From: an uncultured Holophagales bacterium
GTDB lineage: Bacteria > Acidobacteriota > Thermoanaerobaculia > Multivoradales > UBA5704
DNA length: 64,000 nt
Direction of reading: 5' to 3'
Assembly (NCBI GenBank): GCA_963842525.1
Contig: CAWJGT010000003.1
Location: 1,632,001 to 1,696,000, forward strand
Part shown: in pieces, positions 8,561 to 29,100 of the stretch
How the letters are laid out: each line of letters opens with the position of its first letter
Numbering within the stretch: position 1 is the stretch's first letter
Made by a program: the position numbers and the translations under genes
Notes under the pieces: model-generated
Database searches by the model: none
What the model saw: the letters and a program-made list of their open reading frames with translations, nothing else
Told to the model about the DNA's origin: nothing

Positions 8561-10591
8561 GTGCGACACGAAGGGAGGTCTGATGTGAGCTGATTTGCAG
8601 ATTACAGAGAGACCTCCTGGGTCTCGAAGGCCAGCGGGTGGAAGTCCCGCCCGGGGAATTGTCGGTTCGCCCGGTAGCCACTGGAGCAGCCGAGCTCGAG
8701 CAATCGTCCGGCTGAAGCCTCCGGGGAAGTCCTCGGTGCAACCGAGGTGCAAATGCGCAGGCCGAAAAGCACGTGAACCCTGAGCAGGCCTCGATAGTTT
8801 CTCGCTGGAGCCGACCCTCCTGCCATAAGGGGAAGGCCGTCGGGGGGTGGGGGAGCAACCGACCGAAGAACCCGTCCTCTCCAGCCGGGGTAGTGGGGTC
8901 AGCATGCGCAGACAAGGTCTTTGAGGCAACGTGTGAGATCCACATAGGTGGTGGGTCGCGGCCACCAACCGAGGTGATCTGAAATGGTCAGCCTCGGGCC
9001 GTGTGGAAGTCGGAGGGGCCCATGGTACCGAGGAAGCGCCGGTGGAGGGACGGAGCCCTGGTTCGGGCATGCTTCTCAACGAGAAGGAGACCGGGAATTG
9101 ACGATGAGTCTAGAACCCGATCAAGTCGAGCGACTCCGGAAGAAGCTGTATGAGAAGGCCAAGCGGGAGCCAGACTTTCGGTTCTACACGCTGTACGACA
9201 AGGTGTGCTGGGCGGAAACCCTGGAGAGGGCCTACCGACAGGCGAAAGCCAACGACGGAGCGCCCGGAGTCGACGGGGTCCGGTTTGAGGACATTGAGGC
9301 GTACGGTGTAGAGCGGTGGCTGGCCGAGCTTCGGCAGGAACTGGTGGAAGAGACCTACCGCCCCCAACCGGTGCGGCGGGTGATGATCCCGAAGCCCGGC
9401 GGAGGCGAGCGTCCCCTCGGAATCCCGACCATCAGGGATCGGGTGGTGCAGACCGCCGTCGTGCTGATCCTTGAGCCGATCTTCGAAGCTGATTTCGAGG
9501 ACAACGTCTATGCCTACCGGCCGGAGCGCAGTGCGCACGGCGCACTGGCCGAGGTGCAGGGGCGGTTGTATGGAGGCCAGCAGCACGTCGTAGATGCCGA
9601 CGTGACGAAGTACTTCGACACCATCCCCCACGCCGAGCTGTTGCAGAGCGTGGCCCGGCGGGTGGCCGACGGGAAGATCCTGCATCTGCTCAAGCTGTGG
9701 CTGAAATCCCCGGCGGAAGAGAGGGATGAGAGGGGAAACCGGCGGATAACAGGCGGCAAGAAGAGCAAGCGGGGGACTCCTCAAGGCGGAGTTGTTTCAC
9801 CTCTGATGGCTAACATCTACATCAACCGTCTTCTGCGCCACTGGAGGAAGACCGGGGCGACGCAACGGTTGGGACAGATCGTCTCCTATGCCGATGACTT
9901 CGTGATTGTCTGCGCAAGCCGCCGCCAGGCCGAAGAAAGTCTGGCGCTGGTATCGCGCTGGTTGGCGAAGCTCGGGCTGACGCTTCATCCCACCAAAACG
10001 CGCCTCTGTCACGCCCGAGAAGAGCCGTTTGACTTCCTGGGCTACACCTTCGGGCCGGTGCGGCACTGGCTGAGCGGGAAGAGATTCATCTCGGCTCGGC
10101 CATCCAAGAAGGCCCAGAAGAGGCTCAAGGAGAAGATCAACATCCGGCTACGCCGGGGAAACCCAACCCCTTGGCCCAAGCTGCGAGACCGGCTCAACCG
10201 ACTCCTGTCGGGGTGGGCCGAGTACTTCAGCTTCGGTTTTACGGGCCAAGCTGACACAGCCATCAGCTGGCACGTGCGGGCACGGGTTCGGCGATTCCTC
10301 TGCCGGCGGCATAAGCTGCGCGTCAGCGGAACCAGCCGATTCAGCTACTCTGAGATCCATGGCAAGGCGGGAGTGATCGACATCCGCCAGAGGCGCCTGC
10401 AAGGAAGTCCCGTGCATGCCCTCTCGTGAAGCCCGTCCGAGAGCCGGATGCGGGAGATCCGCAAGTCCGGTTCGATGAGCGGCGGTGGGAAACGGAGACA
10501 CGGCCGAGACTGAGGCACCGGCGAGTGGCGAAAGCCGCCGGAAACAGCTACTCCCTCGACCTACAGACACCGCGCCCGCCGCCGACTCTAC
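8561..10591 (+). mobile_element. Complete bacterial group II intron
   Basis: 5' GTGCG; EBS1 TGCCAT (8821-8826) complementary to IBS1 ATGGCA (8555-8560); domain V GAGCCGGATGCGGGAGATCCGCAAGTCCGGTTC at 10441; 3' end ACTCTAC. Confidence 0.92.
9104..10429 (+). CDS. ltrA: Group II intron reverse transcriptase/maturase, no endonuclease domain
   Basis: APGVDG, RPLGIPTIRDR, GTPQGG, YADD, FDFLGY motifs and domain X. Confidence 0.95.
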   Translation: MSLEPDQVERLRKKLYEKAKREPDFRFYTLYDKVCWAETLERAYRQAKANDGAPGVDGVRFEDIEAYGVERWLAELRQELVEETYRPQPVRRVMIPKPGGGERPLGIPTIRDRVVQTAVVLILEPIFEADFEDNVYAYRPERSAHGALAEVQGRLYGGQQHVVDADVTKYFDTIPHAELLQSVARRVADGKILHLLKLWLKSPAEERDERGNRRITGGKKSKRGTPQGGVVSPLMANIYINRLLRHWRKTGATQRLGQIVSYADDFVIVCASRRQAEESLALVSRWLAKLGLTLHPTKTRLCHAREEPFDFLGYTFGPVRHWLSGKRFISARPSKKAQKRLKEKINIRLRRGNPTPWPKLRDRLNRLLSGWAEYFSFGFTGQADTAISWHVRARVRRFLCRRHKLRVSGTSRFSYSEIHGKAGVIDIRQRRLQGSPVHALS

Positions 10592-10829
10592 CCTCTTGGG
10601 GCAGACCAGCTCAAGGCTGGCGATCGGAATGCACGGTTCCCGGCAGGGAGCTTTGCTCATCTGCCGTTTGTCAGCGATCAGTCACCCCACAGTCTCATTC
10701 CCGTACCCGGGTAGCCGGGCTCGCCAAATCTCAAAACTCCCGTCTATACCTCTACCCGGTCGGGCAGAGTTGCGCCCGCAATGCACCAGGTCTGCTCGAG
10801 ATCCTGACGTTCAGCAAGAAAATTCGCGG

Positions 10830-11597
10830 TCACCCCCATTTTCGGTGTGTCCACTCCTGGGCGAGGGCGAACCCACCACCCTCCTCGCCGATGCGGTGAG
10901 AGACCGGGACGCGCACCCCCTGGAGGCGGATCTCGGCATGGCTCATCCAGCCTGCGCCCGCCTCGCCCATCACCGGCAGGTTGCGCACCAGCTCGAAGCC
11001 GGGCGCGTCGCACGGGACCAGGACCATGCTGGCCCGCCCGTGCGGAGGCGCCGCGGGATCGGTCACCGCCATGACGATGCAGAACGCCGCTCCCTCGGCC
11101 GACGAGGTGAACCACTTGTGGCCGTCGACGACGTAGTCGTCGCCCTCGCGGCGGGCCGTCGTCCCCATCCAGAACGGGTTCGAGCCGGCGAACTCGGGCT
11201 CCGTCATCCCGAAGCAGCTCCGGATCTCGCCGCGGGCGAGAGGCCGCAGCCAGCGCTCCTTCTGCTCCTCCGATCCTTGCGCGAGCAGAAGCTCCATATT
11301 GCCGGCGTCGGGAGCCTGGCAATTGCACACGTAGTGGCCGAGCGGGCTGCGGCCCAGCACTTCGCTCAGGTGGGCGAACTCAAGCAGCGACAGCCCGGCC
11401 CCGCCCTGCTCCCGCGGCAGATGGGGGACCGAGAACCCCATCTCCCGTGCCCGCTCGCGCAGCCGGTCGAGCTCCCCCTGGATCGCGCCGAAGCCCTCCG
11501 CAAAGAGCCGCCGCTCCAGAGGCACGACCTCCTCTTCCAGGAAGTCGCGCAGCCTGGACGCCAGGCTCTGGATCCGCTCGGGGACGGTGAAGTCCAT
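10830..11597 (-). pseudogene. Acyl-CoA dehydrogenase, 3'-truncated at about 10854
   Basis: NCQAPDAGNME, FGMTEP and GHKWFTS motifs; homology stops after GFALAQE, so the C-terminal domain is missing. Confidence 0.85.
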
Positions 11598-11633
11598 GCG
11601 CGGGAGCATAGCGCGGATAGAATTGCCGCCGTA

Positions 11634-12455
11634 ATGCTCCCCCGTCCGGTCCTGCTCACCCTGGTTCTCCTCGTCACCCTGCTCCTGCTGACCGGCTGCC
11701 TCCGCCTGCTCTCCCGCTCCATGATGTATCCCGGCTCGCCGGTGCCCTTTCCGCCGGAGGCTGAGCTGGCCCGTCTCTTCCCCCAGGCGCGCCTCGTGGA
11801 CTACCAGGCAACGGACGGCGTCCGCCTGAAGGGAGCCCTCTTCCAGAGGCCGGGCTCGCAAGCGCCGCTGGTCGTCCATTTCCACGGCAACGCCGAGTCC
11901 GCCGCGCAGAACCTGGACTTCGCGGAAGAGCTTTTCAACCGGGGCCTCGACGTCTTCCTGGCCGAGTACCGAGGCTTTGGGGGCCTCCCGGGCCGGCCGA
12001 CCGAATCGAACCTCTACGCAGACGGAGAAGGAGCACTGAAGGCACTCCAGGCCGCCGGCATCCCGCCGGAGCGGATCGTCCTCCTCGGCCGCTCCCTCGG
12101 CTCAGGCATCGCCACCGAGCTGGCCGTCCGCCATCCCTGCCACCAACTCATCCTGGTTTCCCCCTATACCTCCATGGTCGACATGGGCAAGAGGATCGCC
12201 GGTCCCCTCGCCAACTTCGCCGTGGCGGACCGCTACGACAACTTGGCCAAGATCGGCCGCGTGCGCTGTCCGGTGGTCATCCTCCACGGCACCCGGGATG
12301 AGGTGGTCCCGATCCGCATGGGCCGGAAGCTCGCCGCGGCGGCTGGGGCGAAGCTCGTCGAAGTGCCGGAGGCGAGCCACAATGTGTTTCCGGGGTTGGA
12401 GGAGCGGGTGGCGGGGGTGGTGGCTCATGTCCTTGGAGGCGAGACGCCCCGCTAG
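11634..12455 (+). CDS. Alpha/beta hydrolase (probable lipoprotein)
   Basis: LTGC lipobox, FHGNA, GRSLG, HGTRDEVV and terminal His. Confidence 0.88.
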   Translation: MLPRPVLLTLVLLVTLLLLTGCLRLLSRSMMYPGSPVPFPPEAELARLFPQARLVDYQATDGVRLKGALFQRPGSQAPLVVHFHGNAESAAQNLDFAEELFNRGLDVFLAEYRGFGGLPGRPTESNLYADGEGALKALQAAGIPPERIVLLGRSLGSGIATELAVRHPCHQLILVSPYTSMVDMGKRIAGPLANFAVADRYDNLAKIGRVRCPVVILHGTRDEVVPIRMGRKLAAAAGAKLVEVPEASHNVFPGLEERVAGVVAHVLGGETPR

Positions 12456-12625: not shown

Positions 12626-15600
12626 GTGAATACGGACCGATACTACGCTTTTTTCAGCTACAACTCTCGCGATGGGGATCTCGTCGAGAAGATCGCTCGG
12701 GCCATCCGTGCTCACGGGCTGAGGATCTTTTTCGACCGCTGGGGTCTGAACCCGGGCAGGCTGTGGCGAGAGAAGCTTGAGGAGGTTCTGGATTCCTGCG
12801 GGGCCGCCGTGATCTTTGTAGGCCCTGGTGACATGGGAGAATGGCAGGTCAAGGAGATGGACTTCGCTCTTGACCGCCATGCACGGGATACAGCATCCTT
12901 CCTGGTCATTCCCGTTCTGTTGCCAGGCGCTAAGCCCCCTCGGGGCTTCCTAGCGCAATTCACGTGGCTAGATTTCCGTCGGGGAACCGACGATGCGGAG
13001 GCCATTCGGCGCCTTGCCGCCGCGATCCGGAGAGAGTTGCCTGGCTCCAATGTGCCAAACGATCTTGAGGAGATCTTGTGCCCTTATCGCGGCCTGCTCC
13101 CGTTTCGGGAGGAGGATGCTCCCTTTTTCTTCGGGCGTGAGGCATTTACAGAGCGCCTCATGGAGAAGGTCAGAGCACATACCTTCGTGGCGCTGGTTGG
13201 CCCTTCCGGTAGCGGGAAGTCGTCGGTCGTCCATGCAGGCCTGGTGCCGCAACTCCGCCAAGGCCTCGACGGGAAGGTCTGGGGTGCGGCGACGCTGCGG
13301 CCTGGCCGGCACCCGCTACACTCTCTAGCTGTAGCTCTAGTCCCCCTTCTGCACCCCGAGTCGCTAGATGATGAGCAGCTCCTCCAAAGGGGAGGCGCTG
13401 TAGCCAGAGCTATGCTGCGCGAGGAATTACTGCTTTCCAGTGTGATTAGGAGAATCCTTGCCAGGCAGCATGGGACCGACCGTTTGCTCCTGATCATTGA
13501 TCAGTGGGAAGAACTCTACACACTTAGCAACGAGGGCAGCGTTGAATGTCGCAGATTTGTTGAACAACTGCTCGAGGTGTCGCTTGAAGGCTCTCTCACA
13601 GTTCTTCTCACCCTTCGCGCCGATTTCTATCGCCCTGTTCTCGAGGATCGCAAACTTTCCGAGCGTCTCCAGGATCACGTTGTCCACGTGAGCTCGCTTG
13701 AGAGGGACGAAGCGCGGCGGGCGATGGAAGAGCCCGCGCGGAAAGTGGGCCTCGCGTTCGAAGGAGGCCTGGTCGAACAGATCCTCGACGACCTCGAGCA
13801 GCAGCCCGGCCAGCTCCCCTTGCTCGAGTTCGTTCTTGGCGAGCTGTGGAAACAGAGGCGCAACGGCTACTTGCTCGCAGAAAGCTATCGAGGTATGGGA
13901 GGGATCAAGGGAGCCATCGCCACGCGAGCCGACCAAGTACTTCGAGACTATCAGCTTCCCGAGCAGGATGTCCGGCGGCTCTTCATGCGGCTGGTCCGGC
14001 TGGAAGAGGATGCTCCTGACACTCGCCGGAAGGCCTCATTCGACGAGATCGGCGATGCCGAAAAGAGAGTTGCTGCTCCTCTGGTCGAGAACCGTTTGCT
14101 GATCACGAGCCAGGATCCCAGGACGGGCATGGAGACCGTCGAGGTGGCCCATGAGGCGCTGATCCGGAACTGGAAGCGGCTCCGCGGCTGGTTGAAGGAG
14201 GATAGGGCGTTCCTGCTTTGGCGTGAGAGGTTGGGCGCTGCCCTCGATGCTTGGGAAGCTAACAACAAAGCGGATAGGTACCTCCTCAATGAGGGTCCTC
14301 TTGCTGAGGCCGCTCGATGGATCCCGGGCCGCTTTGAAGATCTGTCCGAAGCGGAAAAGGAGCTCATAAATCATAGCCAGAGCCAGCAGGACAGGATAAG
14401 GCGGCAACGCGCCAGGATGAAAGTTTTGGTGAGCGTCGGAATCATTCTTTCGGTCCTATTAGTAGCCATCATTGTCCTCTACAACAGGCGGCGTAACGAG
14501 CTGAAGGCGAAGTTCCTCTTCTCCGAAGCTCGCCAGCTCCAGGGGAGGGCTCTCGACCGGGCCCTCCTCCTCGCTCTCGAGGCGCAGCGGCTCCATGATG
14601 CGCCGGAGGAGCGAGGACTGATCCCAACACTGCTCGAGCAGACTCCTTTCCTCGACTTCTTTCTCCCTTCGGACGGCCGAACCGTCTATCAGGTTGCCTT
14701 CAGCCCAGATGGCCGCTGGCTCGGAGGAGCGGGAGTGAGCCCTCCTGTTTTCTTCGATGCCCGATCCGGTCGTCGGCTCCCTCTCACGATCGGCGGCAGA
14801 GACGTCTTCGGCGTGGCGTTTGGCCCCGGCGGGAAAGCTGCCACGAGCAATCGGAAGACCATTCAGATGTGGGATCTTGCTACGGCGGAGCCCGGCCTCT
14901 CGATCCCTTTGACTTGGCGCGTCCGCAATCTCACTTTCAGTCCCAACGGCAGGTTGATTGCGGCGAGCCGGAACGAGGAGATACGACTGTGGGATACTGC
15001 CTCGGGGAAGCATTACGGTGCCCCCCTGGAGGTGGATGGACCCTGGGTTTCCGGTTTCGCTTTCAGCCCTGACGGCCGGACCCTCGCGGCCGCCGATGCC
15101 AGCGAGACCATCGAGCTTTGGGACGTAGCAACCGGCCGCACGATCCCTTCGGTTCAGAAGGCCGGCCAGTCATTCCTGAGCGTCGCTTTCAGTCCGGACG
15201 GCCGTCGCTTGGTGTCAGGAGAGGGCGGGGGCAAGCTACGGCTGTGGGACGCGTTCTCCGTCCGACCGCTAGGGGAGTCCTGTGCCGGTCACAGCGGCGA
15301 CGTGCTGGACGTGGCGTTCGAACTCGATTTCCAGAGACGGGGTCTGGACGCTCGCTTCCGCGGGCAGTGACGGAAGAATCTTCCTATGGGATGTTCCGGC
15401 AGGCGAAGGAAGTGAATGGAACGCTTCGAACTGTACGCCGCGCGCCGCCCTCACAGGGCACGGAGGGACTGTTTGGAGCCTCGCGTTCGGGAGGGATGGG
15501 CTGCTGCTTTCCGGCGGAGAAAACAAGGGCCTCATACTTTGGCGGCTCTCGCGAGTCCCGCGCCTGGCCCAGCCGCTGCCCGGCCCCGAGGGCCTGCGTA

Positions 15601-16586
15601 GCTTCGCCTATAGTCCGGATGGCCGGTGGATCGCGGCAGGAACGAGCAATGGCGAACTGGCCTTGTGGGATGCGCGCAACCTGATGCAGCCCACAGTCGT
15701 CCAGGCACATCGAAGTGAAACGACTTCCATCGCCTTCCGGCAGGATGGTGCGATGATCGCGTGCGGCGACAAATCCGGTCGGGTCCTTGTGTGGGATCTG
15801 GCCAGCGGTCTACGTCGCCAGCCGGAGCGTTCGTTTGTGCCTTCGGACCTGGATGCAGTCCAGGGAGTTTGGAGTGTGGCGTTCGATCCGGAAGGGGCTC
15901 GGCTTGCGGTCGGGTTCGGCAATGGGCTGATCCGCATCTGGGATGTCAACACCGGCGTGGTGCTCCATGACCTCTATGGCCATTCGCAGAGTCTTATCTC
16001 GAGCCTTGCATTCAGCCGAGATGGGCGACAATTGGTTGCAGGCGGTGATGATCGCCACGTCCACATCTGGGACCTCACGACCTTGAAGGAGGCCCAGTCA
16101 CACCTTGAAGGCCACAGCCAGGCCGTCGGAGCTCTTGCATTCAGCCGGGATGGGCACCTTCTTGCCTCCTCTGGTTCGGACAAGATCATCCAGATCTGGG
16201 ACGTGCGCGGCGGCTATTCGAAGCTGGGGCCCCCTCTCGTCGGACCCGAGGACATCGTGGCAGGAGTGGCCTTCAGCCCCGATGGGAAGACGCTTGCGGC
16301 CGTCAGCCTCGACGGCTCGATCTTTCTTTGGAACGTGGATTCAAGGTCACCCATCGTGTCGAGCCTGAGGGGCAGAGAGGGGGCCGTGGCCTTGAGCTTC
16401 GATCCGACCGGCGATCGGTTGGTGACCGCGGACAGCCAGGGATTGCTGCTTTGGGACCTCCGATTCGAGAGCTGGCGAAAGCTGGCATGTGCAACGGTAC
16501 GAAGGAACCTCACGAAGGACGAATGGAGAGAGTACATGGAGAATGCGCCGTACCGGAAGACCTGCCCAGATTTCCCGGAAGGTTGA
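12626..16586 (+). CDS. TIR - STAND NTPase - TM - WD40 NLR-like protein (frameshift near 15320)
   Basis: FFSYNS TIR, CPYRGL, GPSGSGKSS, IDQWEE, LPLLEF, HEALIRNW, TM helix, many WD40 repeats continuing in ORF 15282..16586. Confidence 0.9.
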
Positions 16587-16759: not shown

Positions 16760-16972
16760 ATGCGGAAGGCAGTGATGGGTCAGGAGGAGTCGGACGGCTT
16801 GCGCCAGCGGCGGGTGCTGGCGAGAATCCTGGCAGAGGACTTGCGGAAGGCTCGGGGGAGCCAGGAGCACTGGGGGAGTCCGAGGGTCTCCCTCCTGGCT
16901 TCGGGGACGCCCACGGATGTGGACTCCGAGCCGGACTACACCTGGCGGGGATCTGACGGGGACACCACGTAG
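16760..16972 (+). CDS. Putative graspetide precursor peptide A1 (70 aa)
   Basis: AAAGGAGG RBS; shares VLARxLAEDLR, LLAS and DxTxxGSDGD with 18458..18649; adjacent to ATP-grasp gene. Confidence 0.82.
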   Translation: MRKAVMGQEESDGLRQRRVLARILAEDLRKARGSQEHWGSPRVSLLASGTPTDVDSEPDYTWRGSDGDTT

Positions 16973-17050
16973 GCCAGAATGGTGCGATACCGGGGCGGGC
17001 ATGCCGCCAGATGCGGCTTGCCCGCCCTGATGCACCCCGGATCTTCTACT

Positions 17051-18199
17051 ATGAACCGAAACAGATCCGTCCTGATTCTCACTGAATGCGGAGATGTCCA
17101 TGCCTATGCCGTGGCTGCAGCGCTCGAGCGAAAGGGGGCGACCGTCGTGCTCTGGCACACCGCAGATTTTCCGACGCAGGCCGGCGAGACAATCCGTTTC
17201 GAGCACGGCAAGATGACGCTGTGCGCACGCAGCCGCGCCATCCACCTGTCGGATTTCACCTTCGACACCGTCTGGCACCGGCGCCCGACCTACGTCATCG
17301 ACGAGAGCCGCCTCCATCCTGCGGACCGAGAGTTCGCTGAGTCGGAGTGCAACGTCTTCCGCCGCTCTGTGTTTTCCCTCATCGCGCCAGAAGCCTTTTG
17401 GGTCAACCATCCCGATGCAGCGACCCGCGCAGGGCGAAAACCGGTCCAGCACGCGGTGGCCCTCGAAGTCGGCTTTTCCACACCTGCCACGGTATATACC
17501 AACGACCCGGAAGAGATCCGTGATTTCATCGCCCGCCACGGCGGCAGGATCGTCTACAAGCCCTTCCGGGGTTATTCGTGGAAGGATGAGGAGTCCTACT
17601 ATCTCCCCTACACGAGCCTGCTCACGGCAGACCAGCTCGTCGGCGATGACCTGCTGCGGGCGGTTCCCGGCATCTATCAGGAGCTGGTTGCGAAAGATCA
17701 TGAGCTGCGCGTGACGGTCATCGGCGAACGTGTTTTCGCGGCCAAGATCCTCTCCCAGGCGACGTCATCCGGGCGCCTGGATTGGCGGAAGTCCTATCAC
17801 GAGCTCCGCATGGAGGCCTGCAACATCTCGTCCGAGCTGGCCGACGGCTGCCGTGCGATGCTGCGCCGCCTGGGCCTTGTCTTCGGGTGCTTCGACTTCA
17901 TCATTACTCCTGACGGCCAGCCGATCTTCCTTGAGGTCAATGAGGCCGGCCAATTCCTGTTTGTCGAGCAGTACACGGCTCAGCCATTGCTCGACGCCTT
18001 CACCGAGTTCCTGATGCAGGCGCGGCCCGACTTCGATTGGGCACCTACCTGTAGCTCCATCACCTACTCCGAGGTACAGGACTCGGTCCGTCGGCTGGAG
18101 GCAAGGTTCGCAGAGCGTCACATTGCCTCCCCCGACCGGGCTGTCTGGGAGGGTTCGGGACCTCGAGAGCCCTTGCAGAGGCGGGTGGCTCGTGCATAG
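17051..18199 (+). CDS. ATP-grasp peptide maturase, MvdC/MvdD (graspetide synthetase) type
   Basis: D-x-H-A N-terminus, VWHRRP, FWVN, YKP, YQELVAKDHELRVTVIG, DWR, DFII, FLEVNEAGQFLFVE. Confidence 0.9.
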   Translation: MNRNRSVLILTECGDVHAYAVAAALERKGATVVLWHTADFPTQAGETIRFEHGKMTLCARSRAIHLSDFTFDTVWHRRPTYVIDESRLHPADREFAESECNVFRRSVFSLIAPEAFWVNHPDAATRAGRKPVQHAVALEVGFSTPATVYTNDPEEIRDFIARHGGRIVYKPFRGYSWKDEESYYLPYTSLLTADQLVGDDLLRAVPGIYQELVAKDHELRVTVIGERVFAAKILSQATSSGRLDWRKSYHELRMEACNISSELADGCRAMLRRLGLVFGCFDFIITPDGQPIFLEVNEAGQFLFVEQYTAQPLLDAFTEFLMQARPDFDWAPTCSSITYSEVQDSVRRLEARFAERHIASPDRAVWEGSGPREPLQRRVARA

Positions 18200-18457
18200 A
18201 CGGGGCGCTTTTCTTTATGCGCTCATGCCCATAGGATTGATGCCTAAACAAACTGTGGTATGATGGTTTCTCTAAAGGTAGCCGTCACGGAGCAAAGAGG
18301 CCGGATCAACCGGAAACCTGGAAGCGTCGGCGGGTCGGACAGTGTTGCTCTCAATTCTCTCCTCCCTTTCTCTTGCCTGTTCCTCCTTCCCTTTGGCTGC
18401 CGGACTGTGTCGCCCCGTCCGCGCCGCGGACCTTCCTCGACCTACAGGAGGTGAGAG

Positions 18458-18649
18458 ATGCGTAAGTCGGATCTGGACGAAGTGGCCGAATCGAGTCGGG
18501 AGAGAGTCCTTGCACGGGTGTTGGCCGAAGACCTGAGGAGGGTGCGCGGACGCGCAAACCACGTCTTACTTGCCTCAACCTATAGTGAGACCGCCCCGCC
18601 ACCAGGTCGTGACATCACGAATGTCGGCAGCGATGGAGACCTCTACTGA
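18458..18649 (+). CDS. Putative graspetide precursor peptide A2 (63 aa)
   Basis: AGGAGGT RBS; homologous to A1. Confidence 0.82.
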   Translation: MRKSDLDEVAESSRERVLARVLAEDLRRVRGRANHVLLASTYSETAPPPGRDITNVGSDGDLY

Positions 18650-18668: not shown

Positions 18669-19598
18669 ATGATACCAGGTATCATACTGCGCCTCACCGT
18701 CCTGACGCTCTGCTTCGCGTGCAGCGGCTCCATGCATGAAGGTATGGGGATTGGCCCGGGCCTGCGTGGGGCATGGCAGGAGCAAGGAGAAGAGCGTTTC
18801 CTGCATATCCAGAAAGACCAAATCATCGAATTCACCAACCAGGAGGGCCTCAAGGTACGAGGTTTCATCAGATGGGAGCAGGACCATCTTGTGCTGCGCC
18901 GGTCGGGCCGCGAAGAGAAATGGACGCCTTCCCTACAGCGCGGCAGGCTCCGCCTGGACGGCCCGGAGGGGACTCACATCTTTGTCCGTTTGGATGAGGT
19001 TCCCCCGGAGGTGGAGCTCAAACCGCTGGTGCTCGGCGATTCGAGCCGTCCCCTCTCACCCGAACGAGCACAGGCTATTCAGGCGGAGATCGAAGGTCGC
19101 TTCCGAGCCGAGCAGGAGCTGTTCCGCGCCATCCGGAGGAATCGCGAACTCCGCCCAGAGGCCGACCGGCTCAAACGCGAGAACCTAGCCTATCTGCGCA
19201 TCCTCCTCGGCGACGTAGGCTGGATCGATGCCGCTCGCTTCGGTGCCAAATCCTCCGTCTACACGGTCATCCTCGCCAAGCACACGGGAGATCTCCGTCT
19301 GATGATGACCATTCTTCCGCTGGCGGAGAAAGACCTCAAGAATTCCGAGGAGGGCCAGACGTACGCCGTCCTCTATGATGCCCTCCAACTCGACCTCGGC
19401 CACAAACAGCTCTATGGCACGCAAATCGCCGAGGATGAGCATGGACAACCCTACGTGCTGCCCTTCGAGGGTTCGGAAGCGAGTGTCGAACAGCGTCTGC
19501 GCGAGATAGGGCTTCCTTCATTTGCCGAGTACCGCAACCAGGTGGGCGAGGCCCTTTACCCTGGTAAGCGAGTCCGGCTCGCCCGCAGCGACGGCTGA
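18669..19598 (+). CDS. Exported/lipoprotein with DUF6624-like C-terminal domain
   Basis: Signal with Cys; GW...G, H, YAVLYD...QLYGTQ motifs. Confidence 0.6.
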   Translation: MIPGIILRLTVLTLCFACSGSMHEGMGIGPGLRGAWQEQGEERFLHIQKDQIIEFTNQEGLKVRGFIRWEQDHLVLRRSGREEKWTPSLQRGRLRLDGPEGTHIFVRLDEVPPEVELKPLVLGDSSRPLSPERAQAIQAEIEGRFRAEQELFRAIRRNRELRPEADRLKRENLAYLRILLGDVGWIDAARFGAKSSVYTVILAKHTGDLRLMMTILPLAEKDLKNSEEGQTYAVLYDALQLDLGHKQLYGTQIAEDEHGQPYVLPFEGSEASVEQRLREIGLPSFAEYRNQVGEALYPGKRVRLARSDG

Positions 19599-19704: not shown

Positions 19705-20631
19705 CTACGCGCTCACCGCCCGTACGAAATCCGGGCTCAGGTCCCGCCGGCCAAGCTCACGGCTCTGGAGCTGCTTGCCCTGGCCGGTGCGTAACGTGCC
19801 GAGGAGATAGCCGGCGCGGCACTTCGGGCAGCCTACGACGCTTACGGCGATGCGGACCGGCAGCTTGTCGATCTCCTTCTTCTGCGGCGCGTGCTCGGCG
19901 AAGAGGGCTCGGAAACCGTCGAGGTCTCCGCCGTACGCTTTGTCTCCGGCCGTCGCGAGGAGGGTGGTCCCACGCTGGAAGGCTGCCTCCTGGGTGGCCT
20001 GGTAGGTGGCCTGGGCCGCAACGTCCTTCTTGCGGATCTTCTCGGCCTTGACGCTTGCCGGCAGGAGGCCGGCGTCCCGCGACTTCATGTACGTGCGGCA
20101 GGAATCGCAGTAGGGGAGGGCCTTCATCGCCAGGGGCGCGATGAGGCTGCCGGCGCAGAAGCCGGCGATCTCCAGGAGGCGGAACCCGTAGCCCCAGACC
20201 CCCAGCGGCTCGCCGGACGAGCCGTCGTCCTTCTGCCAGGCGAACGAGCGGGCGGCGAAGTCGAAGTAGGTGAGGAAGCCCACCGGCGTGCCGTCTTCAT
20301 ACTGCAGGCCGAGGCCGCGGAACTCGATGTACTGACCGACGAAGTAGGCGCCGATCTGGAGCAGGACGACCGTCCAGAGGAGCGACTTCGTGATCTTCTC
20401 CCCGGTGACCCGGGACGCGACCCCGTAGCCGCTCGACGCCACCAGGCCCACCAGCAAGGCTCCGATGGGCAGGACATAGTTCGCGTACCAGCCCATGACG
20501 TGGAAGTCTTCCGTGAAGCGGTCCAGCGCCCAGACGGCCAGCAGGGCGAGGGCCGTCGTCGCCAGGCCGCTCAGGATGACTGCCATCCGGCGATCCTGCG
20601 CCGGCTCGATCGGGCGAGCCATCGGATCCAT
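19705..20631 (-). CDS. Hypothetical membrane protein with two CxxC motifs
   Basis: Several hydrophobic helices; CDSC and CPKC. Confidence 0.7.
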   Translation of the reverse strand: MDPMARPIEPAQDRRMAVILSGLATTALALLAVWALDRFTEDFHVMGWYANYVLPIGALLVGLVASSGYGVASRVTGEKITKSLLWTVVLLQIGAYFVGQYIEFRGLGLQYEDGTPVGFLTYFDFAARSFAWQKDDGSSGEPLGVWGYGFRLLEIAGFCAGSLIAPLAMKALPYCDSCRTYMKSRDAGLLPASVKAEKIRKKDVAAQATYQATQEAAFQRGTTLLATAGDKAYGGDLDGFRALFAEHAPQKKEIDKLPVRIAVSVVGCPKCRAGYLLGTLRTGQGKQLQSRELGRRDLSPDFVRAVSA

Positions 20632-20735
20632 AAACGCCTCCTTCGCCAACGGGATTGTTTGAAGCGGATGGTAGCATGGACGGCGTTCCATAGGGGCTGT
20701 CATGATGCCGGCATTTACGATCGCCTGACCTGCCA

Positions 20736-21700
20736 ATGCCTGACCGCGGCTCCCTCCGTCCCCATCTCATCCTTCCCGTCGGCACGCAGGTCGTGAGCCG
20801 GGTCGAGGTGCGCGATGCCCGCGGCACGGTGCTCTGCCCGGCTGGGGCGGTAGGGGAGGTCGTCAAGGCGCCGGCTGATGGCACGCATTCCTACCGGGTG
20901 CGCCTGCCGGACGGCCGCGAGGTGTCGCTTCAGCGACAAAGCCTCTCGATCCACAAGCACACGCAGAGGCATGATCTGGAGGCCGAGGGGGCGGCGCTCG
21001 CCGAGCACGAGCTGTGGAATTACGTGATCTACCGCTGCGTCGTGGGGTCCGCAGGCGTACGGCCTTGCCGGCGAGGGCTCGGACATCGATCGCCGCGGTT
21101 TCTTCCTGCCGCCGGCCGAGCTGCACTGGTCGCTCTACGGCGTGCCGGAGCAGCTCGACAACGAGGAGGCGCAGGAGAGCTGCTGGGAGATTCAAAAATT
21201 CGTGACGATGGCCCTCAAGGCGAACCCCAATGTGATCGAATGCCTGTACACGCCCCTGGTCGAGCTGTGCACGCCGCTGGCCGGCGAGCTGATCGAGAAC
21301 CGCTCGCGCTTCCTCTCGAAGATGATCTATCAGACCTACAACGGTTATGTGCTGTCGCAATTCAAGAAGCTGGAGCAGGACATCCGGACGACGGGTTCCC
21401 TCAAGTGGAAGCACGCCATGCACCTGATCCGCTTGTTGCTGGCCGGAATTGCCGGTCTTGCCGAAGGGCACATCCCGGTGCGGGTGGAAGGCGGGCTTCG
21501 TGATCGGCTCCTTGCGATCAAGCGGGGTGAGGTCCCGTGGGCAGAGGTGAACACCTGGCGGCTCGATCTCCACCGGCGCTTCGAGGAGGCTTTCGCGGCC
21601 ACGAAGCTGCCGGACCGGCCGGACTACCGGTGGGCCAACGACTACTTGATCCGGGCGCGGCGGAGCGCGGTGGGAACGCGGGATCGTCGTGCGCCTGACC
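20736..21700 (+). CDS. Nucleotidyltransferase (YcgL/RlaP-like), frameshifted near 21050; 3' end approximate
   Basis: CVVGS-(AYGLA)-SDIDRRG, KANPN and KHAMHLIRLL motifs across two frames. Confidence 0.8.
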
Positions 21701-23041
21701 CTTCCCGAGCTGTCCCTGGTCGTCCTCGTCGGCCCCTCCGGATGCGGAAAATCGACATTCGCGGCGCAGCATTTCAAGCCGACGGAAGTCCTGTCCTCCG
21801 ACCGCTGCCGCGCCTGGGTGTCGGACGACGAGTTGGATCAGACGGCGACAGTGGATGCTTTCGAGGTTCTGCACTTCATCGCAGGCAAACGCCTCATCCG
21901 CGGACGGCTGACGGTGGTGGATGCCACCAATGTGCAGCCGCGGGCCCGCAAGCCGCTGATCGATCTCGCCCGCCAGCATCACGTGCCGGCCGTGGCCATC
22001 GTCTTCGAGATCCCGGAGAGCGTCTGCCAGGAGCGTAACCGGGTACGCACGGACCGCAACATCGAGCCGTACGTCATCCACAACCAGCGCAATGATCTGC
22101 GCCGCTCGCTCCCGCGGCTCCAGGAGGAGGGCTTTCGTCACATCTATGTCCTCCGGTCACCGGAGGAGGTGGCGGCCGTCTCCATCGAACGCCAGCCGCT
22201 GCGGCCCAACCGGAAGCACGATCGCGGGCCTTTCGACCTGATCGGCGACATCCACGGCTGTGCCGACGAGTTGGAGGATTTGCTCGCGTCTCTCGGCTAC
22301 CTCCCGGACGGCCCCGGCGGCGTTTGGCGGCACCCGGAAGGACGCAAGGCGGTTTTCCTGGGCGATCTGGTGGACCGCGGTCCTCGTGTCCCCGCTGTGC
22401 TGCGCATCGTCATGGACATGGTCGCGGCGGGAACGGCCCTGTCCGTCCCCGGCAATCACGATTTCAAGCTCAAGCGCTACCTCCAGGGAAAGAGGGTGAC
22501 GGTCAAGCATGGGCTGGAGCAGTCGCTGGAGCAGCTCGAGGAGGAGACGCCGGATTTTCGCAACCGGGTCCGTGATTTCCTGGATGGTCTGGTGAGCCAC
22601 TATGTGCTCGACGGCGGACGGCTCGTAGCGGCGCACGCCGGGATGAAGGAGGAGATGCAGGGGCGGTCTTCCGGCCGGGTCTTCGACTTCGCCCTCTTCG
22701 GCGAGACGACCGGCGAGATGGACGAATTCGGCCTGCCGGTCCGCGCCAACTGGGCGGCCGAGTACCGCGGGTCCGCGGCAGTGGTCTATGGCCACACGCC
22801 GGTGCGCGAGCCGGAATGGCTCAACCGGACGATCAACATCGATACCGGCTGCGTCTTTGGCGGCCGGCTGACAGTGCTGCGCTGGCCCGAGCGCGAGCTG
22901 ATCTCGGTACCGGCCCGGCAGGCCTATGCCGCGCCCCGGCGGCCTTTCCTGGAAGTCCCTGAGGAGGCCCTGACGGCACAGCGCGTGGATGAGGTGCTCG
23001 ATCGGGCGCTGGAGAGCGAGCCGGTCGATCCACGGCTGTAG
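21689..23041 (+). CDS. Polynucleotide kinase-phosphatase lacking the ligase domain
   Basis: GPSGCGKST, VDATN, GDIHG, GDLVDRG, GNHD, YGHTP and DTGCVFGG motifs; ends ALESEPVDPRL. Confidence 0.88.
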   Translation: MRLTLPELSLVVLVGPSGCGKSTFAAQHFKPTEVLSSDRCRAWVSDDELDQTATVDAFEVLHFIAGKRLIRGRLTVVDATNVQPRARKPLIDLARQHHVPAVAIVFEIPESVCQERNRVRTDRNIEPYVIHNQRNDLRRSLPRLQEEGFRHIYVLRSPEEVAAVSIERQPLRPNRKHDRGPFDLIGDIHGCADELEDLLASLGYLPDGPGGVWRHPEGRKAVFLGDLVDRGPRVPAVLRIVMDMVAAGTALSVPGNHDFKLKRYLQGKRVTVKHGLEQSLEQLEEETPDFRNRVRDFLDGLVSHYVLDGGRLVAAHAGMKEEMQGRSSGRVFDFALFGETTGEMDEFGLPVRANWAAEYRGSAAVVYGHTPVREPEWLNRTINIDTGCVFGGRLTVLRWPERELISVPARQAYAAPRRPFLEVPEEALTAQRVDEVLDRALESEPVDPRL

Positions 23042-23156
23042 GGCGCCCGAGTGAACCCGGCTTCAAGCCCCATTTATGGGGCGCTGTTGCTAGCCCGGCG
23101 ATTCATCGCCGGGCCTCGGTTTCCCTCCGACCCCTTCGCGTGTCTAGACTGATGCT

Positions 23157-26100
23157 ATGAATCTCTGGAAGCATCGGTACCGCGCTGCGGCGTTCGTCGG
23201 TCTCGCTCTGGTCTCCCTCCTCGTATTCTTCGGCGGAGGGCTCGGGCCTCTGCTGCGGCCGGCCTTCGCCACTCTGGCCGGAAAGGAAACCCCTCCTGTG
23301 GATGTCGACTTGACTGCTGCCTGGAAGGAGATCGAACGCCTCATCGAGGAGGAGAAGCTGGAGGAGGCTTCGGCGGCGACGGCCAAAGTGCTGGCCGCGG
23401 CCCGCGATGCGGGCGACGCGGAGGACTGGACCCGGGCGCTCATCCAGCAGGTGCAGCTCCGCATGGCCCTCCATGGCTATGCGACCGCGGTCCGCTTCCT
23501 GCGCGAGGAGCCGTGGCCGTCCGATCCCCTCCATCGCGCGGCACTTGGCCTCTTCTACGCGCATTCGCTGGCGGGCTACTACGACGCGTATCGGTGGGAG
23601 GTCGACCAGCGCGAGCGCGTCGAGCACCCTCCGGGCGCGGTGCCCGCTCTCGAGACGTGGACGCGGGACGAGATCTTTGCCGCGGCGGTCGGCGCCTACC
23701 TGGAGGTCTGGAACGATCGCGAGCGGCTGTCGGAGATCCCGGTCTCGCGTCTGGCCCGCTACCTGGAGCCGAACGATTATCCCGAGGGCATCCGCGGCAC
23801 CCTGCGCGACGCCGTCTCCTACCTCTTCGTCGAGCTGTTGGCGAATACCGCGGCCTGGAGCCCGCAGGAGCTGTCCGAGGGGGCGGGTCTCGACCTGCGC
23901 CGCCTGCTGGCCGACGAGGTGACGGCCGATCTGGCGGATCCGGAGGTCCATCCGCAGGAGAAGCTCGCCGCGGTGCTGGCGGACCTGGAGGCATGGCACC
24001 TGGACGAGGGGAACCGGGCCGCAGCTCTGGAAGCCCGGCTGGAGCGCGTGCGCCGCCTGCGCTCCGCAGCCGCGACGGATGAGGACAGCCTTCTGCTGCG
24101 CCGCGACCTCGAAGGACGGCTTCCCGCCTTCCGCGACACCTCCTGGTGGTCCATGGGGATGGCCGAGCTGGCGGAGCTCGTCCAGGGCGAATCGAGCCCC
24201 GACCACCTGGTGCGCGCCCGCGAGATCGCTCTGGAGGGAGCCCAGGCTGCTCCGGATACTCCAGGTGCGGTCCGTTGCCGCGACCTCGTGGAATCGATCG
24301 AGGCGCCGCACTATCAGGTGCAGGGCATGCTGAGCGACGGCCTCGACCGGCGCTCGCTGCGGGTCAGCCACAAGAACCTGCCGGCCCTCCACTTCCGCGC
24401 CTTCCGGATCGATCCGGTGCGCCGTTTCGAGAAGGAGCGCGTCCAGCAGCTCTTCCAAATGCAAGACCTCGGGAGCTTCCTGCGGGGCCACCGGCCCGAC
24501 GCGGCGTGGACGACCGAGCTGCCGCCGACGCCTGATTACGAGGTCCACACCACCTACGTGGTGCCACCCATCCGAAAGCCCGGGGCCTATGTGATTGTGG
24601 CCTCGGCGCGCGAGGACTTTGCCGCCGAGAACAACCTGTGGATCGCCTCGGGCCTGTTTCTGGGCGACCTCGTCCTGGTGACGCATCACCCGGGCGGACG
24701 GGATCTGGAAGTGACCGCGCTCTCCGGCGAGACCGGCCGGCCGATTCCCGGCGCCGAGGTGCGGCTCTATGAGCGCAACTGGCAGACCGGTCCGATCCTG
24801 CGCGAGACCCGGACCACCGGCGCGGACGGCCGCGCCGTGCTGTCGCACCGGTCCCGCCAGAGCCATTTCGTGCTCGGCCTCCGCGGCGAGGACGTCGCCT
24901 TGTTCGAACGCTACCCCGCGTACGACCGTCCGGAGGACCGCGGCGAAGGGGCCTCGCTGATCTACACCGACCGCGCCATCTACAGGCCGCAGCAGAAGCT
25001 CTTCTGGAAGGTGCTCGCCTACCGCGGCCGGCGCTCGGAAGGAAAGCTTTCTGCCGCGACCGGCAGGGCGCTGACCCTGTCTCTGATCGACCCCAACGGC
25101 CAGGAGGTCGCCTCCCGGACAGTGACGACCAACGAATTCGGCACGGCGGCAGGAGATTTCGTCATCCCGCCGGGCCGACCCCTGGGTGCCTGGTCGCTGC
25201 GCAGCTCCCTTGACGGCTGGGCCCAGGTCCGTGTCGAGGAGTACAAGCGGCCGACGTTCGAGGTCGTCCTCGACGACCCGCCGGCGCCGCCCCGCCTGGG
25301 CAGCCCCTCCGCCTTCACCGGCCACGCCCGCTACTACTTCGGCCTGCCGGTGGTGAGCGGCAAGGTGCGCTGGAAGGCTACGCGCGAGCCGGTCTACCCC
25401 TGGTGGTGGTCCTGGTGGTCTTCCCCCGGCCGCGGCCAGGAAGGCCGTATCGTGGCCGGCGGCACGGCGGAGCTGGCCGAGGACGGCTCCTTCCGCATCG
25501 AATTCACGCCGCAGCCGGAGACGAAGGGCGATGCCAAGGAAATCACCTACCGCTATCGGATCGCGGCCGAGGTGACCGACGAAGGAGGAGAGACCCGCGA
25601 CGCCTCCCGCGTCTTCCGGCTCGGCCGGATCAACGTCGAGGCGGCCATCGACCGGCCGTCCGACTTCTTCCGCGCAGGCCGCCCGGCGGCGGTCACCATC
25701 GTGCGGCGGGATCTGGACGGCGTGGCGCGCCCCGGCGAAGGAGCCTGGACGCTCGTCGAGGTGCGCCAGCCGGAGCGTGCTCCATTGCCGGCCGACCTGC
25801 CGCGGACCGAGCCTGTGCCCCAGGACGCCTATCGCACGCCGGGCGACGCCCTTCGCCCACGCGAAGAGTCCTCGAGCTATGCGCCCCGCGAGGTCCTGCG
25901 GCTCTGGCCGGACGGCCGCCGGGTTTCCAGCGGCACGCTGCGGCATGGCGCGGACGGCAAGGCGGAGGTGTCCCTGCCGAAACTGGCACCCGGTGTCTAC
26001 CGGCTGCGCTACGAGACGCGCGACGACCAGGGCGCCCGGTACGAGACGTCCCAGGAGCTGATCGTGGCCGGCGAGAAAACACCTCTCGCCCTGCCGGCTG

Positions 26101-29100
26101 TTCTGGAGGTCGACCGCTCCGAAGCCCGGGTCGGCGGCACGATCCGCCTGCTGGCGGGCTCGGCCCTGCCGGAGCAGATCTCCTTCCTGGAGATCTACCG
26201 GGACGGCGACCTGATCGACCGGAGGGAGCTCGCCGGCGAAAGAGCCCTTGCGCTCATCGAGATCCCGGTCCGCGAAGCCGACCGCGGCGGTCTCGGCTTC
26301 CGTCTGGTGACCCTGCGCGACCACCAGCTCCTCACGCCTGTCGCTCAGGTCTTCGTGCCCTGGGACGACCGGGAGCTGGAGGTCCAGCTCTCAACCTTCC
26401 GCGACAAGGTCCGTCCGGGGGCGCGCGAGACCTGGACGGTGATGGTGCGCTCTCGCCAGGGAGCTGGCGCGCCGTCCGAAGCCGCCGCGGCCGAGGTCCT
26501 GGCGGCCATGGTCGACCGCAGCCTCGACCTGTTTGGGCCCTACGCTCCCCCGGACCCTCTCTCCCTCTTCCCCAACCGGACAGCCCTCGACACCGTCCAG
26601 TCCAACCTCGGCCGCCTCACGACCGTGGGCGGCGACCAGAACGATTGGGGACCGCGCCAGCAGTGGCGCGGGTTGCGTGGGGACCGGCTGCGGGGCATCG
26701 AGGGCTATGGAATCGGAGGCCCGGGCTCCCGGAGATTGAAGAAGGCCGGGGTCCAGACTCTTGGGTATGCTACGGAGCCGCAGCCGGCTCCTGCCCCCCA
26801 AGCTGCTACGCGTGAGGGATTCGCCGACGCCGTGATGGTCTCCGCCCCGGCACCGGTCCTGGACGAGCGCCGCATTTCCACCGCGTCCACCGTCAGCGGA
26901 ACCGAGGCGCCTGCGCCCCGGCTGCGGTCCGACTTCGCCGAGACCGCGTTCTGGCAGCCGCAGCTCCGCACCGGCCGGGACGGCTCGGCAGCGATCGAAT
27001 TCACCGTTCCCGACTCGGTGACCTCCTGGTGGGTCTGGGTACACGCCCTGACGCAGGACTTCCGCTCCGGCTCCGTGCGCCGGCAGGCCGAAAGCGTCCA
27101 GGAGCTGATGGTCCGTCCCTACGTGCCGCGCTTCCTGCGCGAAGGCGACCGCGCCGAGCTGGCTGTCGTCGTCAACAACGCCTCGGACGCGCCGATGCGC
27201 GGCCAGGTGGAGCTGGACATCGTCGATCCGCGCACAAACGAGAGCCTGCTCGCCGAATTCGGCCTGGGTCCTGGGGACATCCGCCGGCCCTTCTCCGCGA
27301 AGGCCACCGGCTCGGACCGCGTGACCTTTGCCATCACCGCACCGAGCCGGGTGGGGGAGGTGGCCTTCAAGGTCACGGCCTCGGCCGGCGACCTGAGCGA
27401 CGGCGAGCTGCGCCCGGTACCTGTGCTGCCGTCGCGCCTCCACCTCGCCCAGTCGCGGTTCGCGACGCTCCACGGCAAGGAGAGGCGGGAGCTGACCTTC
27501 GCCGATCTCGCCCGTAACGACGACCCGACGCGGATCGACGAGCAGCTCGTGGTCACCCTGGACGCCCAGCTCTTCTACAGCGTCCTCCAGGCCCTGCCCT
27601 ATCTGGTCGACTACCCCTACGAGTGCACCGAGCAGACCCTCAACCGGTTCCTTTCGACCGGCATCGTCGCCGGCCTCTTCGACCGCTATCCGGCGGTGGC
27701 GAAGATGGCGGCCGGGATGGCGAAGCGCGACACGCTCTTCGAGACCTGGGACTCGGCCGATCCCAACCGTAAGATGGCGCTGGAGGAGACCCCTTGGCTT
27801 CAGATGGCGCGCGGCGGCATGCAGGACGGCGAGGACCCCGGCCTGATCCGGATCCTGGACCCCCGGATCGCCCGCGCCGAGCGCGACGCCGCCCTTGCCA
27901 AGCTCGTCAAGGCGCAGCTCCCCGACGGCTCCTTCCCCTGGTGGCCGGGCGGCCCGCCATCCGACTACATGACCCTCTACATCCTCTATGGCTTCGCCAA
28001 GGCCGCCGAGATGGGCGTCGAGCTGCCGCGCGAGCCGGTGCAGAAAGGCTGGAGCTACCTCGCGCAGCGCTACCGCTCCGAGTACGCGCCGGCCATCGGC
28101 AAGCAGGACGGCTGCTGCGTCGAGACCCTGACCTTCCTCAACTACGTGGCCTCGGCCTATCCCGACCCCTCCTGGATGGGAGAGGCGCTCACGGCCGACG
28201 AGCGGAAGCGCATCCTCGACGTACAGCTTCCGCCACTGGAAGGAGCACTCCCCCTATCTGAAGGGGATGCTCGCCCTGACTCTGCGCCGCATGGGCCGGC
28301 CGGACGACGCCCGGCTGGTCTTCGACAGCGTCATGGACTCGGCGAAGACCACGCCGGACGAGGGGACCTTCTGGCTGCCCGAGGAGCGCTCCTGGCTCTG
28401 GTACAACGACACCATCGAGACCCACGCCTTCGCCCTGCGCACCCTCGCCGAGCTGCGGCCGGACGACCCGCGCCGGCACGGCCTGGTGCAGTGGCTCTTC
28501 CTCAACAAGAAGCTCAACCATTGGAAGTCGACCCGCGCCACGGCCGAGGTGCTCTACGCCCTGGTCCACTACCTGGAGAAGGAAGGCCAGCTCGGCGTCC
28601 GCGAGGCCGCCACCGTCCGGGTGGCCGGCCAGGCCACGACCTTCACCTTCGAGCCGGACCGCTACACCGGCAAGAAGAACCAGATCGTCGTGCCCGGGGA
28701 GAAGATCGATCCGCGCGACCGCCTCGACCGTCGTGGTCGAGAAGGAGACACCCGGCCTGATGTTCGCCTCGGCCACCTGGCACTTCTCGACCGAAGAGCT
28801 GCCGAAGGAAGAGAGCGGCGACCTCTTCCACGTCTCGCGGCGCTATTTCCGCCGGGTCCAGAAACAGAAAGAGATCGTCCTGGAGCCCCTGGCGGCGGGC
28901 GACGTCCTCCATCCGGGAGACGAGGTGGAGGTCCAGCTCTCGATCCGCAGCAAGGCGTCGGCGGAGTACGTCCACCTGCGCGATCCGCGGCCGGCCGGCC
29001 TGGAGCCGGGTGCCGTCGTCTCCGGCTACCGCTGGGACCTGGGGATCGCCCGGTACGAGGAGACCCGCGACAGCGGCACCAACTTCTTCTTCGAGGACCT

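Follow-up and report, generated by a model that had tools for sequence, protein, structure and literature searches.

A predicted four-gene graspetide cluster in an acidobacterium, with two precursors, one ATP-grasp ligase and a DUF6624 protein

Graspetides form a large class of RiPPs (peptides made on ribosomes and modified after translation), which includes protease inhibitors such as the microviridins; to our knowledge, most of the 43 predicted graspetide groups have no characterized member. We analyzed a 64,000-nucleotide stretch of DNA from an uncultured Holophagales bacterium (phylum Acidobacteriota; the whole stretch is termed here the window), for which an earlier reading of the letters alone, i.e., the original prediction, had proposed a graspetide-type cluster. 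Our results indicate that the window encodes a compact four-gene graspetide (omega-ester RiPP) cluster, made up of the following genes:

16760..16972, plus strand: preA, graspetide precursor of 70 amino acids (open reading frame [ORF], Shine-Dalgarno sequence AAGGAGG, homology to preB)
17051..18199 (ORF open from 16979), plus strand: graspetide synthetase, i.e., an MvdC/MvdD-type ATP-grasp ligase of 382 amino acids (Pfam, NCBIfam and PDB sequence matches)
18458..18649, plus strand: preB, second graspetide precursor, of 63 amino acids (ORF, AGGAGG, homology to preA)
18669..19598, plus strand: secreted or lipid-anchored barrel-plus-DUF6624 protein of 309 amino acids (Pfam PF20329, AlphaFold2 model, synteny)

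The microviridin system, i.e., the precursor MdnA with the ligases MdnB and MdnC (group 1), has its enzyme superfamily, reaction logic and DWR loop in common with the window. However, microviridin has two ligases, whereas the window cluster has a single one. The PFFARFL leader and TxKYPSD core described for microviridins (PMC8939145; Makarova 2022), and seen in the group 1 rows of the PMC13097080 table, are absent from the window, where the cores also lack lysine, so that no lactam would be formed. Membership of group 1 was ruled out on these grounds.

Group numbers used here are those of a survey based on RODEO and a sequence similarity network (SSN) (PMC13097080; ACS Chem Biol 2026), whose supplementary table has a "Graspetide Group" column. 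In the part of that table available to us, Lysobacter antibioticus (thatisin) is placed in group 16, Marinomonas fungiae in 7, Streptomyces prunicolor in 11 and Micromonospora rosaria in 21. For our own comparisons, a scan of one genome per species yielded 150 confirmed stretches, from which 79 related loci (L005-L083) were kept; 46 of these, with ligases at least 43% identical to that of the window, are referred to as close loci and the remaining 33 as distant loci. Thatisin was the nearest characterized system within this set, its ligases being 33-39% identical to the window's. The thatisin leader (RPLAR-x-AAREL...GG) is related to that of the window, and its core (...T-H-A-T-G-P-N-G-D-D-P...) is likewise rich in Thr and Asp, with a T-x4-D spacing. 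Unlike the window cores, however, it does not contain D-x-T-N-x-G-x-D-G-D. The 33 distant loci also showed no DUF6624 gene. Assignment of the window to group 16 was ruled out, because the T-H-A-T-G-P-N-G-D-D-P motif is absent, the ligases fall into separate clades and their identity is only 33-39%. A third candidate, graspimiditide (group 13), for which a PIMT-type O-methyltransferase in the cluster would be expected, was rejected since the ORFs scanned from 5458 to 32519 (small ORFs in part) contained no methyltransferase domain.

The start of the ligase is likely to be the ATG at 17051, and the product from this codon is 100% identical to a recorded protein of 382 residues. Its sole Pfam domain was PF21068 (MvdD pre-ATP-grasp; E 3.4e-6), whose 27.6 bits just exceed the cut-off of 27, and NCBIfam gave 252.6 bits for TIGR04187 ("ATP-grasp ribosomal peptide maturase"), 166 for MvdD, 157 for MvdC and 38 for RimK. 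Six solved graspetide-type ligases matched it by sequence, with E values from 2.3e-35 to 1.9e-14, i.e., 5ig8, CdnC (7mgv), AMdnB (7m4s), 5ig9, 9bou and 7drm. The best were 5ig8 (E 2.3e-35) and 5ig9 (E 2.1e-30), which we take to be microviridin ligases. The D(F/W)R loop, reported in 10.1101/2021.03.09.434688 to be essential in PsnB, corresponds to DWR at residues 244-246, which aligns to the DWR of 5ig8 and is invariant in 27 homologues (alignment A1). Also invariant in A1 is Arg-220, in an ELRVTV strand, which may be the equivalent of PsnB Arg213. Both signatures of graspetide synthetases, i.e., the D(F/W)R loop and a conserved acid-recognizing Arg, can be recognized in the predicted protein, and an MvdC/MvdD-type ATP-grasp ligase is encoded beside precursor genes, as in other graspetide clusters. 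Three further graspetide-type ATP-grasp paralogues, 30-37% identical to the window ligase, are encoded in the same genome: L002 (contig C33), L003 (C1) and L004 (C25). L002 comes with an upstream precursor and a DUF6624 gene of its own, and L003 has a precursor-like ORF downstream; at L004, no precursor was found by the preA-seeded profile.

Two small homologous ORFs with strong ribosome-binding sites had been proposed to flank the ATP-grasp gene, and this is the arrangement that we found. AAGGAGG (16747-16753) lies 6 nt before ATG 16760 of preA, and AGGAGG (18446-18451) lies 6 nt before the ATG of preB. An alternative in-frame ATG for preA at 16742 (76 amino acids, the start given by the ORF lister) is upstream of AAGGAGG; because of the spacing to the ribosome-binding site, and because the family consensus begins M-[RK]-K, the start at 16760 is the likely one, so that the preA gene likely spans 16760..16972. 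In a BLASTP comparison, preA and preB had 24/53 identities (E 2e-10). The leader helix of preA is RVLARILAEDLRKARG and its core reads ...TPTDVDSEPDYTWRGSDGDTT; the leader of preB is RVLARVLAEDLRRVRG and its core reads ...STYSETAPPPGRDITNVGSDGDLY. The leader blocks, LLAS and conserved tails quoted in the original prediction were all present in the sequence, LLAS, DYTWRGSDGDTT and DITNVGSDGDLY being found in the preA/preB pair. The pair also has the features of graspetide precursors, i.e., a leader with RVLAR..LAEDL and a core with D-x-T...D-G-D. As had been claimed, neither peptide contains Lys after the leader; with the usual donors, only ester links, and no amide, would therefore be possible. 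With the Asp of the D-x-T motif taken as position 0, the conserved core can be written as T(-7)...D(0)-x-T(+2)-x4-D(+7)-G-D(+9), and all five of these Thr and Asp residues are kept in both window cores.

To define the precursor family, 9396 stop-to-stop frames of 25-200 codons from 83 loci (the 79 related loci and four of the window's own genome) were searched by jackhmmer seeded with preA. This gave 78 matches in 70 of the 83 loci, of which 62 preceded the ligase by under 400 bp on its own strand, eight were just downstream and eight elsewhere in the locus. Owing to the iterative nature of the search, the weaker matches (E >1e-5, in distant proteobacterial loci) carry less certainty. Among the close loci, which belong to Acidobacteriota and Myxococcota, 44 of 46 had a family member, L035 and L048 being the two without. 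The proposed co-occurrence of the leader motif with ligase homologues was thereby found, and this adjacency, together with the ligase family matches, bears out the view that the cluster is a genuine graspetide cluster. In alignment A3 (36 sequences), Arg-16 and Arg-20 of the leader RVLAR and Asp-52 of the core were invariant, and Leu-18, Ala-23 and Thr-54 of the core nearly so. Within the window's genome of roughly 10 Mb, the profile made from A3 found only preA (E 1.1e-15) and preB (E 2.0e-20).

Two precursors, as in the window, were present in L005, L006, L008, L012 and L015, and in the closest relatives (L005, L006 and L015) they flank a single ligase in the same way, so that the proposed combination of one ligase with two homologous precursors recurs outside the window. 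PPPG-x-D is shared by the downstream precursors in the window and in L005, L006 and L015, and RGSD-[GA]-D by the upstream precursors in the window and in L005 and L006; it follows that the arrangement with two precursors is older than the split of these genomes. Of 50 distinct precursors of the close clade, 45 could be anchored on a C-terminal D-x-T/S motif, taken as the first one within the final 22 residues, and five lacked the motif; at least three rows were misplaced by this procedure (the downstream copy of L005, L018 and L025). The counts among the 45 anchored cores were 17 for N(+3), 15 for G(+5), 26 for D(+7), 21 for D(+9) and 16 for T(-7). A strict G[ST]DG[DE] tail occurred only in preA, preB and L005, and the exact string GSDGD was therefore dropped as a family signature in favor of D-x-T...D-x-D.

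A protein search with the ligase gave 554 matches among 8000 scored candidates; among the best 120 of these 554, identity to the window ligase was 51-100%, and the named ones came from Thermoanaerobaculia, Acidobacteriota, Hyalangium and Archangium. Ligase trees were built from 80 rows, L048, L057 and L069 having been dropped because their best match covered fewer than 280 residues. In a careful tree, the window grouped with L005 and L006 (support 98/90), then within a five-row clade that also contained L007 and L015 (100/99), which was itself nested in an acidobacterial clade of 29 rows (94/80). In a quick tree, the window fell into a 45-row clade of Acidobacteriota and Myxococcota (SH-aLRT 98), separate from the Lysobacteraceae clade with thatisin-like cores (96).

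Precursors identical to those of L010, L019/L023, L021, L034, L036 and L047 carry the label of group 8 in the part of the PMC13097080 table available to us. The same applies to a Thermoanaerobaculia entry that ends ...RDITNVGSDGDAV and has the decapeptide DITNVGSDGD in common with preB. The preA and preB peptides themselves were not found among the entries listed from that table. Ligases of the group 8 loci are 43-56% identical to that of the window and lie in the same 45-row clade of the quick tree. In that survey, a group 8 synthetase is one that clusters with the others of the group in an SSN at an alignment score of 70. The cores of group 8 are very heterogeneous in sequence. No characterized group 8 graspetide was found by full-text literature search or in the text of PMC13097080 consulted. 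The original prediction had called the core unfamiliar, and this no longer holds: as judged from the matches in the available part of the table, the core family is already catalogued as group 8, a group known by prediction only, and the window cluster is probably an additional member of that group, for which we found no characterized member.

The fourth gene had been overlooked. The original prediction had noted no adjacent protease, transporter or PIMT, which was correct for the larger ORFs scanned, but the resulting picture of a bare ligase with precursors missed the DUF6624 gene, whose ATG (18669) is 19 nt past the preB stop and is preceded by GGGAGG (18656-18661). The product scored 33.5 bits with Pfam PF20329 (DUF6624; E 3.7e-8), above the cut-off of 27, and the same domain matched all 23 aligned homologues from related loci (best E 5.1e-16). 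Of the 46 close loci, 25 had a DUF6624 homologue within the 3-kb flanks of the ligase by tblastn, against none of the 33 distant ones; in the careful tree, it was present in 24 rows out of the 29 that make up the window's ligase subclade. Its orientation relative to the ligase varies: it may share the strand of the ligase, either upstream or downstream of it, or be upstream and divergent. The genome has two DUF6624 matches, both adjoining graspetide-type ligases, the second being beside the paralogous ligase L002. In a class-wide sample of 101 genomes, nine carried the domain; in the window's family (three genomes), six of seven DUF6624 copies were no more than roughly 1 kb from an A1-type ligase. 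Neighbors in relatives lacking DUF6624 included an ABC transporter with a peptidase domain (PCAT) in L045, MacB/FtsX in L025 and L037, and an MFS transporter in L036, and no common substitute was found among these neighbors. More widely, a profile of 23 barrel-plus-DUF6624 proteins matched 8408 cluster representatives when E was <=0.001, the number falling to 371 for E <=1e-30, and most of the best 150 matches were about 300 amino acids long and covered nearly the full length of the profile.

DUF6624 proteins have been linked to graspetides before. The available text of PMC13097080 names DUF6624 for groups 18, 20, 23 and 42, but not for group 8; in those cassettes, as here, the DUF6624 protein travels with the ligase. 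In PMC8939145, a "cluster 23" found in graspetide clusters consists of secreted lipoproteins with signal peptides and conserved His and Arg residues, to which the invariant His-205 and Arg-190 of the window's DUF6624 family may be compared. "Cluster 23" may correspond to DUF6624, but conserved DUF6624 strings gave no matches in four supplements of that paper; nor did leader and core strings of the precursors match in the same four supplements. Relative to both the DUF6624-linked cassettes and "cluster 23", the window protein adds an N-terminal lipocalin-like barrel.

An AlphaFold2 model of this protein (pLDDT 91.7, pTM 0.87) showed disorder in residues 1-24, and the architecture is that of a signal peptide, an eight-stranded lipocalin-like barrel (residues about 33-107) and a helical DUF6624 domain (about 131-296). 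Homologues have hydrophobic, signal-like N-termini, some followed by Cys, which suggests that the protein is extracytoplasmic. The best structural matches of the barrel were small lipocalin-like lipoproteins, with Z scores of 8-10:

5jk2, Tp0751: Z 10.0 (rmsd 2.1, 81 residues aligned)
4gzv, lipocalin family protein: Z 8.7
9fz5_C, YedD: Z 8.5
8ehc, potempin E: Z 8.3
9jdd_B, type VI immunity protein: Z 8.1

Modeled alone, the helical domain had a pLDDT of 95.1. Comparison with solved structures by VIA-align gave no match for it at Z >=8 (best 7.2), a Foldseek search of PDB gave none at E <=0.001 for either the whole model or the helical domain (best for the latter, E 0.28), and a profile of the helical domain had no matches among PDB sequences. 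The absence of structural matches does not show the helical fold to be new. The polar residues invariant in the family are Gln-149, Asp-187, Arg-190, His-205, Asp-237, Gln-247, Gln-252 and Tyr-288. PADLOC gave no match for the protein.

From the gene anatomy, homology, synteny and structure models, we infer how the two peptides may be cross-linked, how many rings they have, where they are cleaved, how they are exported and what part the DUF6624 protein plays. By analogy with the mechanism of the family, the ATP-grasp ligase would bind each precursor by its conserved leader helix (G-RVLAR-[IV]-LAEDL-R) and phosphorylate Asp side chains of the core, which would then be attacked by Thr hydroxyls to form side-chain macrolactones. 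The core offers two Thr donors and three Asp acceptors, so that two rings per peptide are expected, probably both Thr-Asp esters and with no amide. The leader probably ends at a degenerate double-glycine site, i.e., R-G-S in preA, R-G-R in preB and G-G in most relatives. Leader removal and export would be carried out by machinery encoded elsewhere, such as a C39-peptidase ABC transporter on another contig, and the secreted DUF6624 protein would then meet the exported peptide. We consider it highly probable that the ligase closes Thr-to-Asp lactones in both cores, that the leader is cut near the GG position, that export occurs in trans and that the DUF6624 protein meets the product.

Several observations weigh against this account. 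The ligase scored below all curated NCBIfam cut-offs (TIGR04187, 252.6 against 350; TIGR04184 and TIGR04185 were also below theirs), which marks it as a divergent representative of the peptide-maturase branch. RGS in preA and RGR in preB are poor double-glycine sites. Only D(0) and T(+2) are near-universal among the cores, D(+7), D(+9) and T(-7) each occurring in about a third to three-fifths of them, so that the two-ring prediction may fail across the family or even in the window. Of the 46 close loci, 21 lack DUF6624, some of these 21 being cut by contig ends or by the 3-kb flank. Finally, in a second family of the same class none of seven DUF6624 copies was near a ligase, and the control genome, Caulobacter, has one DUF6624 match; these two findings show that DUF6624 is not exclusive to graspetide clusters.

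The unequal conservation of the core bears on an alternative in which preA and preB are substrates but the product is single-ring or otherwise different, i.e., has one Thr-Asp lactone or is formed by a ligation other than a side-chain ester. Such a product would fit a family in which D(0) and T(+2) alone are near-universal and in which, in the available part of PMC13097080, the published group 8 rows have widely varying cores. However, both window cores retain all five candidate positions, and we regard this alternative as unlikely. The patchy occurrence of DUF6624 bears on another, in which that protein is an obligatory intracellular partner of the ligase, comparable with the PpiC-like MirC for rosaritide, and the ligase alone is inactive. 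The synteny of DUF6624 with the ligase is tight, and partner-dependent graspetide synthetases have been demonstrated (PMC13097080). Nevertheless, the signal- or lipoprotein-type N-termini and the unstructured residues 1-24 place the DUF6624 protein outside the cytoplasm, away from the ATP-dependent ligase, and the 21 close loci lacking DUF6624 have ligase and precursor without it; a role of this kind is very unlikely.

We therefore return to a DUF6624 protein that meets the peptide after export. Its most likely function, as predicted from sequence and model, would be that of a peptide-binding or self-protection protein or of a processing enzyme whose fold has no solved relative. A more specific, tentative suggestion is that the barrel-plus-DUF6624 protein is a true third component of the system that acts on exported peptides outside the cytoplasm, either as a leader-removing or ring-editing hydrolase with no solved relative or as a lipocalin-type binding or immunity protein that would hold both of the distinct mature peptides. 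For a hydrolase, the candidate residues would be the invariant His-205, Asp-187, Asp-237, Arg-190 and Tyr-288.

In the larger ORFs scanned near the cluster, neither a transporter nor a peptidase was found. Two Peptidase_C39 genes occur elsewhere in the genome, on contig C9 (L084:1363-3387) and contig C30 (L085). The copy on contig C9 is a full PCAT (C39, ABC_membrane and ABC_tran), which makes it a candidate leader peptidase and exporter acting in trans.

The region between the ligase and preB contains two features of possible relevance to transcription:

18189..18204, plus strand: terminator-like hairpin at the ligase stop (consensus scan)
18237..18264, plus strand: sigma-70-like site TTGATG-16-TATGAT ahead of preB (consensus scan)

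These are weak signals, the scan having given one promoter-like site against 0.7 expected and four terminator-like sites against 2.3 expected, and they hint that preB and the DUF6624 gene may form a second transcription unit. RNA folding of the spacer between the ligase and preB (18180-18460) was no better than that of shuffled sequences (z +0.68), and an Rfam search of 16000-20000 gave no match. No RNA data set was listed as containing the stretch, small shares of which were present in just two DNA runs from soil metagenomes.

The remaining genes that surround the cluster are as follows:

5458..7679, minus strand: IS21 IstB and transposase genes
8984..10429: group II intron reverse transcriptase/maturase
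10485..12455: alpha/beta hydrolase
12626..16586, as ORFs 12626..15370 and 15282..16586, plus strand: TIR + nSTAND1 NTPase + WD40 gene (Pfam)
19705..20736, minus strand: predicted membrane protein of 343 amino acids, converging on the DUF6624 gene
21142..31274: genes for an RlaP-family nucleotidyltransferase, a kinase/phosphatase (AAA_33 + Metallophos; PNKP-like) and an alpha-2-macroglobulin

Immediately upstream of preA, the ORF for the TIR-nSTAND1-WD40 protein (914 amino acids) and the next, WD40 ORF (434 amino acids) overlap by 89 nt in different frames, and a WD repeat runs from the end of the former into the frame of the latter. The pair looks like one gene of about 1340 codons with a frameshift near 15300-15330, which might be due to an error in sequencing, to decay into a pseudogene or to a genuine split. 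L005, L006, L007 and L015, i.e., the four loci closest to the window, likewise have a WD40/STAND gene directly upstream on the same strand, and the TIR and nSTAND1 domains and weak PADLOC matches of the window protein would be in keeping with a single signaling or defense module that included the graspetide genes. Such a module is nevertheless most improbable: the neighbor is confined to the five-member clade (100/99) and was absent from the remaining 42 close loci, so that shared ancestry would explain it; WD40 repeats yield generic matches of 30-35%; and the window's own copy looks frame-shifted. Membership of the TIR-STAND-WD40 gene in the system is therefore doubtful.

Farther upstream, 5458..12455 is rich in mobile elements. 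On the other side of the cluster, the predicted membrane protein (19705..20736) matched neither Pfam nor PADLOC models, and the related loci contain no homologue of it. Beyond it, the RlaP nucleotidyltransferase and the AAA_33/Metallophos kinase/phosphatase form an RNA-repair-like pair, followed by the bacterial alpha-2-macroglobulin gene (1867 amino acids) and then by two ORFs with bMG10 domains.

We know of no test of the function of DUF6624 by any group. If the barrel-plus-DUF6624 protein were a third component, graspetide maturation or self-protection would be finished in the periplasm, and preA and preB would constitute a two-peptide system. The ring pattern of the window peptides, once solved, would add a topology to the graspetide class, and the locus, which comes from the little-studied soil phylum Acidobacteriota, is a compact, expressible example that combines two precursors with a single ligase and a partner. 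The main value of the cluster may lie in its fourth gene: DUF6624 has been flagged by published surveys as a possible new biosynthetic enzyme and, because both copies in this 10 Mb genome adjoin graspetide ligases, the organism would provide a clean system in which to test its function.

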